The notes: generated by a model not told the origin, from the sequence alone. A stretch of 64,000 nucleotides of DNA from Eledone cirrhosa (GCA_964016885.1 OZ024742.1:263066001-263130000), one strand, 5' to 3'. Positions 9,231 through 62,168 are shown, counted from the stretch's first letter. Made by a program: numbers and translations.

Positions 9231-9340
9231 TCGGGTTAAGTCGGGGGTAACCACAGTAAGTAAGGTACTCAATACATAGCAGAGTATAAATATTTAATAC
9301 AGAAATGGCTTCTACAGGAAGGAAATCATCAGGATTTCAA
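9231..9340 (-). mobile_element. PLE-derived short element, relative of 24629-24882 with internally deleted HHR
   Basis: gtaaccacagtaagtaaggtactcaatacatagcagagtata shared; ttctacagga...gaaatcatcagga retains only the HHR flanks. Confidence 0.65.
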
Positions 9341-9699
9341 TGCTATGATATCTTTTATCATCAGATTTTCAATGCTATGATATCTTTTATCTTTCTTCTG
9401 TAACATCTTTTTGCTTGATACCTTTTTGCACCTGAATTACCTTTATGAATAACTTTCTATATAATATGCTTGCTAGTTTCACTTTATGTAATAACTTCTT
9501 CACAGCTCCTAATACTTTGATATCTGTATAACATAATATCATTTTGTCACTCTTGCTTTTCAATATGATGTCACTGACACTGTCAATAATTATCTACCTA
9601 TATGAATGTTTCGAAGACTAGGATTATAATTACTTGTTTAAACATTGTGTATGCTCCGATGAATCCAGACTGTTGTCTGGAAGAAACGATCGTCAGCAA

Positions 9700-10544
9700 T
9701 TAAATGTATTAAAGCAAAAATTTGATTGTTTTATATTTTGTGTTAAAATTTTAAAGCAAAATAGAATTTATCATTGCACATCCTGTAATGGCTTTATATT
9801 TTGCATTTGTTGTTCAGGGACGGCGTGGCAGCCGCTTAAATATTCGAAAATACCACTTTTAGACTCACATTTCCATTTTTTTCGGCTCTAGCTTCCACAT
9901 TAATCAACCTACTTTGTTCAAATTTTACGTCTTAAAGTGGCTTTACATTTTGGATTTTTTGTTCAGAAACGGCGTGGCAGCCGCTTAAATATTCGAATAT
10001 ACCACCTTTTCGCTCAAATTTCCACCTTTTCGGCTCGAGCTCCCACATTTTTCAACCGATTTCGTTCAAATTCGAAACTTCGGCTCCACCTCACACATAA
10101 ATCAATTTATTTGGTTCAACTTTTATACTACGATAGAACCTATCATTGCATATCTTATAGTAACTTTAGACTTTGCATTTTTTGTTCAGGGACGGCGACC
10201 TATCATTAGCTCCCACATTTTTTAACCGATTTCGTTCAAATTTGAAACTTCGGCTCCACCTCACACATAAATCAATTTATTTGGTTCAACTTTTATACTA
10301 CGATAGAACCTATCATTGCACATCTTATAGTAGCCTTACGCTTTGCATTTTTTGTTCAGGGACGACGTGGCAGCCGTTTAACTCTTCAAAATACGATTTT
10401 TCCACCTCCCACATATTCCATACGATTTCACTCAACATTTCGCCATTTGCTACACCTTACGACTGATTTTCAAGAAACTCGCAGTCGCTAAGATCAACAC
10501 CTTTTCATCAAAGCAGATATTATTTTACCTACCCAGGCTGCTAG
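9700..10544 (+). mobile_element. Non-autonomous Helitron-like element with internal about 170-bp tandem duplication
   Basis: 10038-10208 repeated at 10209-10375; ends ...ggctgCTAG|T; 5' end uncertain. Confidence 0.5.
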
Positions 10545-10547
10545 TAT

Positions 10548-57610: not shown

Positions 57611-59634
57611 CCAAAAAGCAGGCTTGGAAAGCATGGCGGGATGGGGGAAGTAGAGAAGACTATCAAGTGGCCAGGAGGGAAGCTAGGAGACAAGTGTACT
57701 TCGCAAGAAGGGAAGCAGAGGAAAGAAAGTTCAAGCATGTTCTACAACGCGAGGACCAAAAACGTGAGGTGTTCAGGATTGCTAGGCAATGTGTCAAGGA
57801 AAACCGTGATATTGTCGGGGAGAAGTGTGTACTTAACGATGATGGCGTACTTGCGATCACTGACGCTGATAAGAAGGTAGCTTGGAAGTGTCACTACGAA
57901 AGGCTACTAAATGAGGAAAATAAATGGGAGAAAGACAGTCTCCCCCACATCGACCCAATAGAGGGACCAGCAGTGTTAGTCGAAGGTAGTATAATAAGTA
58001 AGGCAATCAAAGATATGAAGACGGGTAAGGCGGCTGGGCCTTCGGAAATAGTTGCTTAGATGCTGAAAGCCTCTGGAACGGTGGGACACACCATGGTCGC
58101 CTGGATAGTAAACCAAGTCATACAGAATGGGGTTGTTCCGAAGGACTGGCGTAGCAGCATCATCGTTAACTGTTACAAGGGTAAAGGAGACGCCCTAGAT
58201 AGGAGTAACTATAGAGGCATTAAATTAATCGACCAGGTCATGAAGGTCACGGAAAAAGTAATAGCGCAACTAATCAGAGAGAGAATTGATCTAGATGAAA
58301 TGCAGTTCGGGTTTGTGTCAGGCAAAAGTACCACAGACGCTCTTTTCATTGTACGACAACTACAGGAGAAGTACCTAGCTAAAAGTAAACCCCTATACTT
58401 AGCTTATGTCGACTTGGAGAAAGCCTTCGACAGAGTCCCCCGTTCCATTATCTGGTGGGCTCTTAGAAAACTAGGTGTTGACGAATGGCTTGTGGGATCT
58501 ATACAAGCCATGTATAAAGAAACAGTCAGCAAGGTTAGAATTAACAACGAATATAGTGAATAGATTAGCGTAACAGTTGGTGTCCATCAGGGCTCTGTTC
58601 TTAGCCCCCTACTATTTATTATTACCCTTCAGGCTATAACAGAGGAGTTCAAGACCGGCTGCCCATGGGAACTCCTATACGCAGATGATCTAACGCTCAT
58701 AGCTGAATCAATGGCCGAGCTAGAGAAGAAATTCCAAACATGGAAGCACGGCCTAGAATCAAAAGGCCTTAAAATTAACCTGGCTAAGACTAAAGTTTTA
58801 GTTTGTAGGAAAGAAAATAAGGCGCCGGTCCCTTCCGGGAAATGGCCATGCTCAGTGTGTAGGAAAGGCGTAGGTAGAAACTCCATTTTATGTCCCAAAT
58901 GCAAAGTATGGGTGCATAAAAGATGTAGTGGGATCACAGGTAAGCTAACTAAGAACACAGATTTTACATGTGGCCGGTGCTCTGGTGCAATAAGTAGCAG
59001 CAAGTGCCCACAAAATAATAGCTCTTTCAATTGCGCAGAGGGTTCTATAGAAATAGTGGACAGCTTCCGTTACCTGGGTGACAAAATCAACAGTGGGGGA
59101 GGGTGCTCTGAAAGTACAGTAGCTAGAGTCAGAACTGGATGGAAAAAGTTCAGAGAGCTTATACCACTATTAGCCGCTAAAGGGTTCTCCCTAAAAATAA
59201 AAAGCAGCTTGTATGATGCCTGCATACGAACAGCAATGTTGCATGGCAGTGAGACCTGGGCATTGTGTGCAGAGGATATACGCAGACTAGAGAGGAACGA
59301 AGCTTGCATGCTCCGCTGGATGTGTAATAGTAATATACGTGAACGGCAAAGCATAAACGAACTAAGGAAAAAATTAGAAATAAGAGGGATCAGATGTTGT
59401 TTACTCGAGAGAAGGCTACGTTGGTATGGTCACGTGATGCGCATGAAAGACGACAGCTGTATAACAAAGAGCAGGGCAATAAAGATAGATGGTAGCCACG
59501 GAGTAGGCAGACCCAGAAAAACCTGGGACGAGCTGATAAATTCCGACCTCACACATTTACACCTCTCCAAGACAATGTCACTGGTCCGAGACATTTGGCG
59601 GTACTCAGTAATAGAGAAGACCCGCCTTACCTAA
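57611..59634 (+). pseudogene. RTE reverse transcriptase with embedded PHD-like zinc finger; two in-frame TAG stops (58057, 58561)
   Basis: KGKGD..NYRGI, QFGF, VDLEKAFD, GVHQGSVLSP, LLYADD, CSVCRKGV..SILCPKCKVWVHKRC..FTCGRC; the three listed ORFs share one frame. Confidence 0.92.
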
Positions 59635-60135
59635 ATACAAAGTAAAACCTACTACAGTCAGTAGGCATCTCTAACGAAATACACCCCCGTCCCACCACCC
59701 TCACCCCATCCACACCGCCCCTTTCAATGTAAAGTTATGTTGGTGCCAAAACATCCAGGCCGAAACAAATGAGATCGTGTAGGTGTCACGACAAAAAACA
59801 CACAGTCCACGCTGTAATGTGGCCGTGTAGGCAACACGGTAAAAACCTCCCAGTCCCACACTGTAAATGTGGTTGGTGTTAGGAAGGGCATCCAGCTGTA
59901 GAAAACCCGCCAGACAGTCCACGCTGTAATGTGGCCGTGTAGGCAACACGGTAAAAACCTCCCAGCCCCACACTGTAAATGTGGTTGGTGTTAGGAAGGG
60001 CATCCAGCTGTAGAAAACCCGCCAGACAGTCCTATGCGAGCGAGACAACCACTCTTGCCTCAAGTGGGAAAACTCCCGTCCAAACCCATGCAAGCGTGGA
60101 ACATGGACGTTAAACGATGATGATGATGATGATGA
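57611..60135 (+). mobile_element. 5'-truncated RTE-clade LINE with (TGA)n tail and about 110-bp duplication in the 3' UTR
   Basis: RT motifs and tail; flanked by TA/TACA repeats. Confidence 0.93.
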
Positions 60136-61303
60136 TATACATATATATATATGTATACATACATATATATATAAACATACATATATATAAACATACATAT
60201 ATACATACATATATATATATACATACATACATATATATATATACATACATACATATATATATACATACATATATATAAATATATACATACATATATATAT
60301 ATATATATATACATACATATATATATATATATATATATATACATACATATATATATATACATACATATATATAAATATATACATACATATATATATATAT
60401 ATATACATACATATATATATATATATATATATATACATACATATATATATATACATACATATATATAAATATATACATACATATATATATATATATACAT
60501 ACATATATATATATATATATATATATACATATATATATATATATACATACATATATATATATATACATATATACATATATATATACATACATATATATAT
60601 ATATATATACATACATACATACATATATATATATACATACATATATATATATATATACATACATATATATATATATATACATACATATATATATATATAT
60701 ATACATACATATATATATATATATATACATACATACATATATATATATATATATATATACATACATATATATATATATATACATACATATATATATATAT
60801 ATACATACATATATATATATATATATATAGATACATATATATATATATATATATATATACATATATACATATATATATACATATATATATATATATATAT
60901 ATATATATATATATATATACACATACATATATATATATATATACATACATATATATATATATATACATACATATATATATATATATATATAGATACATAT
61001 ATATATATATATATACATATATACATATATATATACATATATATATATATATATATATATATATATATATATATACACATACATATATATATATATATAT
61101 ATATATATACACATACATATATATATGTATATATATACATATATATATATATAAATACATATATATATACACACACATATATATATATATACACATATAT
61201 ATATACACACATATATATATATATACACACACACACACACATATATATATATATATATATATATATATATATATATATATATATATATACATATATATAT
61301 GTA

Positions 61304-62168
61304 TAGTAATAATAATAAAATTGAAGACTAAAATCCAAAAAGGGCTCGATAAGGATAAATATATATCAAATATATAAGAACCGTAGAGCAAATATTTATT
61401 AAAATACCAGATTAAAGTTTAAGCAAAGAATCGCTGCTTTCACCCTTAACGGGATCTTCTGAAACTAACAAAGTCAATCTGTAAACGCAGAACTGGATAT
61501 TTCAAAAAACGTTGCAACCGGAGGAAGACAGAAAGACGATACTTTGGTTCGTGGTAACGTTCGCTGGCAAAGAACGGGAAAAAACGAATAATACGTCATT
61601 AATAGGAGCGGTGAAAAACAATTACGCGCAAAGACAGAACCACGTTTATGGTATAAAAGAGGTCGTAGACTAATGTTCTCTTAGGTGGTGCATAGAGACG
61701 TTCTCTGGCAATGAACGAAAAAACGAAGATAATAAGTCATATGTGGACCGTGGAGAACAATAGCACGCAAAGACAAAACCACGTAAATGGTATAGCAGAA
61801 ATCATAGACTAAAATTCTAACTAGGAGACCAAATGAATCTCCGCTACAGAGTTAAGAACAAAGTAAATAAATACAATACAGAAGTAATAGAAACAAATAA
61901 ATACATACACGCAAACAGATACGTACATACACAAGCATACGCAAAACCTTACCATGGGTATACAAAACCACGCACATATAAATATGTGTGTGTGTGTATG
62001 CTTGTGTACAAATAAATAAATCATTATATAAAATTATATAAGTAAATAAATACGTATTGAAATATCCAGTTCTGCGTTTACAGATTGACTTTGTTAGTTT
62101 CAGAAGATCCCGTTAAGGGTGAAAGCAGCGATTCTTTGCTTAAACTTTAATCTGTTATCTTAATAAAT
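61304..62168 (-). mobile_element. CAGAAGA-HHR family element with inverted arm
   Basis: Tail as at 50557; arm 61391-61505 inverted at 62058-62168; HHR 62096-62146(+). Confidence 0.8.

Follow-up and report, generated by a model that had tools for sequence, protein, structure and literature searches.

The 64,000-nt stretch of the Eledone cirrhosa genome analyzed here (GCA_964016885.1 OZ024742.1:263066001-263130000; hereafter, the window) has an A+T content of 71% and holds about 19 kb of (TA)n microsatellite, in which dozens of short repeats are embedded. Most of the tiny palindromic repeats in these tracts are two-armed tail-end copies of coding Penelope-like elements (PLEs), and their tails share a bulged hairpin that is the subject of this report. 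A first-pass annotation of the window had listed nine sites of an ACTC...GAGT hairpin in the 3' tails of unrelated families; all nine are present in the places and on the strands given, and that listing missed three families (9011-9032, 12566-12589, and 21557-21578, all on the plus strand) and four more copies of the family we call A.

In element sense, the hairpin has a basal helix of 4 bp, RCUC/GAGY (ACTC/GAGT, ACTT/GAGT, or GCTC/GAGC), and directly above it an upper helix of 3 to 10 bp whose sequence varies by family (TAC/GTA, TGC/GTA, CAG/TTG, CAGT/ACTG, CGGAGT/ACTTCG, TGAG/CTCA, TGGAC/GTCCA, and TGT/ACA were seen). A 2-nt bulge (U-N) interrupts the 3' side, with U (T) in the first position in 31/31 rows, and the first pair of the upper helix is Y:R. 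The ACTC/GAGT pairing is therefore just the basal helix of a bipartite bulged hairpin. The "loops" that had been described as differing in length and sequence hold the covarying upper helix and the 2-nt 3' bulge. The swap from A-U to G-C that had been pointed out is confirmed (18 AU and 8 GC among the rows), while the outermost T:G/T:A pair is unsupported, being unpaired in 14 of 28 rows.

Two covariance models, R1 (built from 6 window families) and R2 (31 rows), together recover 16 hairpin copies in 10 families within the window. F5 was kept out of the seed alignment because MAFFT misplaced its stem, and a hand parse was used for the 5 of 21 hairpins that an automatic stem parser got wrong. 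With R2, 13 of the 16 copies score E<0.005, the two F7 copies reach E values of 0.37 and 0.5, and the F2 copy reaches only 9.3 bits (E 8.6). The copy in the coding family F1 (38859..38898, plus strand) consists of ACTC, CGGAGT, an 18-nt AC-rich loop, ACTTCG, the bulge TC, and GAGT, and scores 21.3 bits with R2 (E 0.0048); that of its relative F2 (10968..11007, plus) has ACTT, a 10-bp upper helix, the bulge TT, and GAGT. On the minus strand lie the copies of F3 (50289..50309; ACTC CAG AAAAC TTG TC GAGT), F4 (30730..30754; ACTC CAGT CCCACAA ACTG TA GAGT), and F5 (24672..24690; ACTC TGC TAT GTA TT GAGT), together with a second F5 copy (9267..9285) that is followed by its long end, then (CA)n (9186-9227), then (TA)n. 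Family A is represented on the minus strand by 17089..17112 (ACTC TACT ACCCTA AGTA TT GAGT), 21731..21754, a decayed copy with GAAT (25515..25538), and a decayed A-like copy with GATT (11749..11772), and on the plus strand by an old copy at 3322..3345, the only one in the window that does not adjoin (TA)n. The two F7 copies (50596..50641 and 61344..61389, both minus) have the basal helix GCTC/GAGC, as seen in the first of them, where the upper helix is TA-GG/CC-TA with one C.T mismatch and the bulge is TC. The three families missed earlier are F8 (9011..9032; ACTC TGAG ATTT CTCA TG GAGT), F9 (12566..12589; GCTC TGGAC AAAT GTCCA TG GAGC), and F10 (21557..21578; GCTC TGT TTAATT ACA TT GAGC). A hairpin of like build (GCTC CTAA..TTGG TT GAGC AC) also occurs at 52078-52117 on the minus strand, in a 430-bp element (51715-52144), where it lies 27 nt from the element's 5' end instead of near its 3' end.

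Enrichment of the motif in tails over background and covariation across families, both anticipated by the first-pass annotation, are borne out. In first-order Markov simulations, 0.11 matches to ACTCY-N5-45-RTHGAGTRC would be expected in the window against 7 found, and 0.01 matches to the GCTC/GAGC variant against 3 found. A (TA)4+ run lies 38 to 82 nt 3' of 15/16 window copies and in 10/10 families, a spacing shared by 6.4% of non-TA positions. The test was extended to the window plus 100 kb on each side (264 kb); among anchors chosen on sequence only, 23 of 43 close to (TA)n had at least 3 upper-helix pairs (2.3 expected), compared with 14 of 120 far from (TA)n (6.6 expected). Across 28 distinct rows, 91.4% of cells are paired, against 76.9 ± 1.6% in shuffles, and the covariation score is 0.526 against 0.226; none of 500 shuffles reached either value, slid-alignment controls gave 18 to 49% paired, and both sides have changed in 5 of the 8 pairs. 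With 8 G.U pairs and 1 A.C, the rows favor the sense strand of the RNA. When the hairpin was masked in 15 family representatives, similarity (blastn, E<=0.01) was left only between F1 and F2 and between F6 and F15, aside from a 15-nt F3-F4 match in the hammerhead region and shared (TA)n in F6, F9, and F10. No clear figure for the proportion of families with the hairpin came out of clustering 741 (TA)n-flanking ends, the result being too noisy. One 56-member cluster of such ends in the 264 kb finishes in ...aacccatgctag...gatgatgaa and is unrelated to PLE tails.

Full-length units are arranged in the order hammerhead-like motif, short end, first hairpin (H1, at the short end), a stretch of about 50 to 75 nt, long end, second hairpin (H2, past the long end), and ATG. 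The hairpin had been read as a 3'-tail signal, which is only part of the picture: full-length units carry it in the leader, 3' of the hammerhead-like motif and before the ATG, and carry it twice. The short end falls 2 to 9 nt 5' of H1 in all nine families that have short-end copies (F1, F2, F3, F4, F5, A, F7, F10, and F12). For F1 in the window it lies at 38853..38855 on the plus strand, 4 to 6 nt 5' of H1; the short-end arm of F2 ends near 10553 (minus) and that of F4 near 31097, the inverted arm of F5 has its short end on the 24881 side, and family A has a palindromic short-end/long-end insertion at 17041-17224. The long end lies 38 to 82 nt 3' of H1, and H2 starts 5 to 8 nt past it in four of the five coding families tested; in F1 it reads GCTC CCC ACAC GGG TT GAGC (5 loci) and in family A GCTC CTAC TCCC GTAG TA GAGC. 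The ATG follows H2 after 19 to 71 nt. The F1 ends were taken from printed rows, as a 10-nt duplication upset ungapped break-point calling. At the 5' ends of the short window elements, R1 and R2 found no H2-like hairpin.

The two kinds of end occur in pairs: each of 13 fully seen head-to-head insertions (11 in the window, one of F12 in locus L066, and one of F1 in locus L053) has one short and one long end. For F1, 32 long ends at 30 loci were compared: (CT)n or (ATCT)n is attached to 10 and "tct" to 10, and these additions agree with the stretch of F1 template that separates the long end from H2. The (CT)n or (ATCT)n repeats stand between the F1 long end and (TA)n (L002-L030), as (CA)n does in one F5 copy of the window, and look like the product of reiterative copying at the start site.

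The window holds one F1 insertion on the plus strand (35170..38948), in which an inverted arm with a short end (outer end at 35177) is followed by a direct copy with its long end at 38948; the inverted repeat spans 35177-35793 and 38239-38855, and the direct copy is 5' truncated and internally deleted. The window open reading frame (ORF) at 35636-37348 (570 aa) is chimeric, its first 172 nt coming from the inverted arm's piece of the 3' untranslated region, and that piece has 99 to 100% identity at more than 2,000 places in a first look at the genome. F1 is a very young and very abundant family of which the window copy is a truncated member. Full-length F1 copies elsewhere encode 892 aa with RWK, DKT, YRDD, CxCX5C, and a GIY-YIG core without CCHH. 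In PMC8557442 (Craig et al. 2021), RWK, DKT, the CxCX5C linker, the lack of CCHH in the GIY-YIG core, and insertion into (TA)n are the marks of the Hydra clade of C-terminal endonuclease-containing PLEs. The RWK motif near the N terminus reads RRMRWKAF in F1, RLRWR or RIRWR in A, F5, and F7, and RLRWI/RLRWT in F4; the change from DKG to DKT is seen in F1 (ADKTNNLY), A and F7 (SDKTGNLY), F5 (SDKTKNVY), and one of eight F4 loci (L141; SDKTNNLY). By eye, the F1 linker is CNCRNPESC, followed by NIVYGCRV..LYIG with a single Cys, and the family A linker is CNCPDRSIC. The elements insert into (TA)n, and F1, A, F4, F5, and F7 share both the protein motifs and the target of the clade as described in that source.

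Patterns for read-through of the tails matched 438 times for A, 290 for F4, 118 for F5, and 461 for F7, against 0 for a reversed-pattern control, and these read-through copies run into a leader and a Hydra-type ORF. Family A forms 3,543-bp tandems; in the reverse transcriptase (RT), its protein and the F1 protein share 42% identity. F1, A, F4, F5, and F7 are the tail ends of at least five distinct coding Hydra-clade PLEs. The idea that unrelated families are served by a single PLE does not hold: since the tails read through into their own Hydra-type ORFs, the motif is clade-wide and the families are not parasites of one PLE. Coding copies were sought for F1, F2, F3, A, F4, F5, and F7; the read-through pattern for F3 gave 0 matches, probably because the window copy has diverged, and the search with F2 found only (TA)n or another microsatellite past the long end. 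In Pfam searches the window ORF showed neither an RT nor a GIY-YIG domain and the full F1 protein showed no domain, and metagenome contigs scanned with the F1 protein yielded no relative. Sequencing runs of two other organisms (B and C) contained 46% and 30% of sampled words from the F1 leader (L052:60-700), shares that indicate near-identical copies of this leader in other organisms; none of the runs listed is recorded as RNA.

The hairpin had also been placed just downstream of a hammerhead ribozyme, which is true of some families only: upstream of it a hammerhead core is readable in F1 to F5 and F12 (helices I and II as well as the core are legible in F1 to F5), and the other families have no readable core. 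In F1 the hammerhead-like motif (38759..38813, plus) comprises helix I (ACTGC/GCAGT), CTGAAGAG, helix II, GAAA, and TATATATA, a layout that matches the Hydra rows given in File S2 of PMC8557442. Rfam hammerhead models gave no match to the F1 tail (38730-38960) even at E<=10, and nothing relevant was found there; the whole window had 0 Rfam matches at the gathering score. At E<=1 the window gave 334 sub-threshold microRNA-type matches, and those listed fell on (TA)n or palindromic repeats and were discarded; sub-threshold matches of the mir-297 and mir-3149 type in (TA)n tracts are artifacts of (TA)n self-pairing. The F1 H1 starts with ACTCCGGAGT (38859-38868) and the F2 H1 with ACTTCGGAGT (10968-10977), and both starts resemble the stem III and cleavage-site stretch ACTC-N-GAGT-A-AC of the Hydra-2_Amil and Hydra-1/2_Ajap hammerheads as published.

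Hammerhead-like motifs are also found in four window families without the hairpin, at 18731 (minus) and 19125 (plus), at 12393 (minus), at 2604 (minus) and 46748 (plus), and in a 310-bp tandem at 12887-15795. This tandem has nine full 302-bp units and one partial unit, separated by about 8 bp of TA; its full units each carry CTGATGA...GAAA and are oriented as six on the minus strand, then the partial unit, then three on the plus strand. The family at 18486-19313 and its flanks (motifs 18731 and 19125) likewise ends at two points, a short and a long one separated by about 60 nt, and directly past the short end it carries a small AAC-ACAC-GTT hairpin, possibly the equivalent mark in another PLE clade.

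Hairpins of the same architecture are present in published Hydra consensi, judged by eye only (File S7 of PMC8557442). Hydra-2_Amil from the coral Acropora has GCTC TACAC..GTGTA TT GAGC; from the sea cucumber Apostichopus, Hydra-1_Ajap has two hairpins about 33 nt apart before the ATG and Hydra-2_Ajap has one. In these three consensi the form is GCTC-stem-TN-GAGC-AC with differing upper helices. Hydra-1_Crog from the sea louse Caligus has one hairpin with a mismatch, and Hydra-1_Amil and the 5' region of Hydra-1_Obim gave no convincing parse by eye in the same file. The available text of PMC8557442 covers Hydra-clade hammerheads, pseudo-long terminal repeats (pLTRs), and tails and does not treat this motif, and the words "hairpin" and "stem-loop" are absent from its main text. 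A literature search found no description of this hairpin, in line with the first-pass annotation, which knew of none; two internal RT start sites and a tail between them have nevertheless been published for another PLE (PMC11167929).

We consider it probable that, across Hydra-clade PLEs, the bulged hairpin acts in the RNA to fix where reverse transcription begins, about 6 nt upstream of itself. The first-pass annotation had proposed a cis signal for priming by the PLE, and the ends 2 to 9 nt 5' of H1, together with H2 at 5 to 8 nt past the long end, agree with that proposal; we infer the function from the presence of the hairpin in distant families and from copy ends a few nucleotides 5' of both H1 and H2. 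The RT-endonuclease, perhaps as a dimer, would bind both hairpins of the sense transcript, after which the nicked target strands, both (TA)n, would prime at the two marked sites. Priming of this kind would produce an inverted pair with a one-sided tail.

The closest known case is Poseidon PAc of Anolis (Frangieh et al. 2024, PMC11167929), compared here by its text description, in which RT starts at two internal stem-loop sites downstream of the hammerhead, the tail is the stretch between the two start sites, both target strands are cut and extended, and a dimer of the RT-endonuclease is predicted. PAc, a PLE like our elements, has a hammerhead where pLTR and ORF meet and two alternative RT starts downstream, to which a hammerhead-like motif and two putative starts correspond here, and the two alternative 3' ends with a one-sided tail in inverted insertions were found here as well (13/13). 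It differs in clade (Penelope/Poseidon rather than Hydra) and in layout: PAc is reported to start inside an AC-rich stem-loop 111 to 118 nt into the ORF and has a tail of 30 to 40 bp, whereas the ends described here lie a few bases (2 to 9 nt) 5' of the base of two leader hairpins and the tail measures about 60 to 110 nt. AC-rich loops occur in only some of the hairpins (F1, F4, A, and the H2 of F1).

The 3' stem-loops of eel UnaL2/UnaSINE1 and of the R2 3' untranslated region are small, conserved RNA structures recognized by the RT of the element; they form the 3' terminus of the RNA and are themselves copied. Unlike these, the candidate mark described here lies 3' of the putative start site and is absent from short-end copies, and unlike stringent pairs of long and short interspersed elements, most of its carriers appear to be coding elements themselves. 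In telomerase RNA, a helix beside the template fixes the site of copying. PLE RTs form the sister group of TERT (PMC8557442), and a helix beside the start site and reiterated short units at that site would recall telomerase; unlike telomerase, there is no fixed internal template here. By this analogy it is conceivable, and we put it forward tentatively, that the template is defined in a telomerase-like manner by a helix beside the start, that the twin hairpins are read by an RT-endonuclease dimer, which primes the two strands simultaneously, and that the (CT)n/(ATCT)n additions are a telomerase-like stutter.

Several observations weigh against a role in start-site choice. The alignment behind the covariation test had been fitted to the model, and a single family can contribute several of its rows. 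Thermodynamic support for the hairpin is weak: about half of the minimum-energy folds of 10 tails contain the bulged hairpin or a part of it, and single-sequence folding z-scores range from -0.2 to -2.6. The upper helix of H2 has just 1 to 2 bp in F4 and F7, and F5 lacks a canonical H2, having only a 4-bp GCAC/GTGC hairpin 9 nt past its long end. The pattern used for H2 demanded RCTC past the long end and was thus blind to read-through copies without RCTC, and the ends are uncertain by 1 to 3 nt where the element and the (TA)n target share T/A. The four hammerhead-like window families listed above have no R1 or R2 match, and File S2 of PMC8557442 gives actc/gagt as stem III of the Hydra-2_Amil and Hydra-1_Ajap hammerheads. 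Another leader role (in translation or stability) is possible, since the hairpins are located in the leader before the ORF.

In its full form, this last explanation makes the hairpins a leader element for translation, RNA stability, or control of hammerhead folding and has the ends set by annealing of the (TA)n primer to an open A/U-rich stretch. Such a role would suit the location of H1 and H2 between hammerhead-like motif and ATG (H2 being 19 to 71 nt before the ATG), the T/A-rich bases often seen at short ends, and the modest stability of the hairpin by itself, but we regard it as unlikely because a spacing of about 6 nt is seen again at each of the two hairpins and across families with unrelated flanks, because accessibility alone does not predict the pairing of short and long ends in 13/13 insertions, and because the invariant bulge U and the basal sequence suggest contact with a protein. 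The hairpin could instead mark a DNA-level site for the GIY-YIG endonuclease, with elements homing into existing copies. The tail of Drosophila Penelope is reported to be needed for endonuclease recognition (cited in PMC11167929), and elements do cluster tail to tail within shared (TA)n tracts; this explanation is nonetheless improbable, given that compensatory changes preserve pairing rather than sequence, that G.U pairs outnumber A.C pairs 8 to 1, and that the insertions sit in plain (TA)n and not in the hairpin.

Two further explanations would deny the hairpin a role of its own. That it is a piece or relic of hammerhead stem III is suggested by the listing of actc/gagt in File S2 and by the palindrome ACTCCGGAGT with which the H1 of both F1 and F2 opens. 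In the window, however, 45 to 100 nt separate the hairpin from the GAAA core upstream and neither CUGANGA nor GAAA adjoins it, it is present in F9, F10, and A without a readable hammerhead, and the published Hydra-2_Amil and Hydra-1_Ajap consensi carry a GCTC/GAGC hairpin besides their stem III, so that we give this origin very little credence. The motif might also have no function and be shared through recent common descent of all tails, as the visible kinship of F1 with F2 and of F6 with F15 would allow; this is highly improbable in view of the other families, which share nothing else at blastn E<=0.01, of two coding families that are only 42% identical in RT, and of the hairpin in three other phyla.

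A hairpin that positions the RT start would matter for PLE biology in several ways. What is known so far about the choice of RT start in PLEs comes from a single in vitro study, on one vertebrate element, and here a hairpin kept across four animal phyla is tied to both kinds of copy end. It gives assays of binding and priming something definite to mutate, and it supplies a boundary rule for PLE annotation and a possible handle for tools of RNA-templated insertion. If true, twin-hairpin priming by a dimeric enzyme would explain the long-puzzling one-sided tail and inverted insertions of PLEs.

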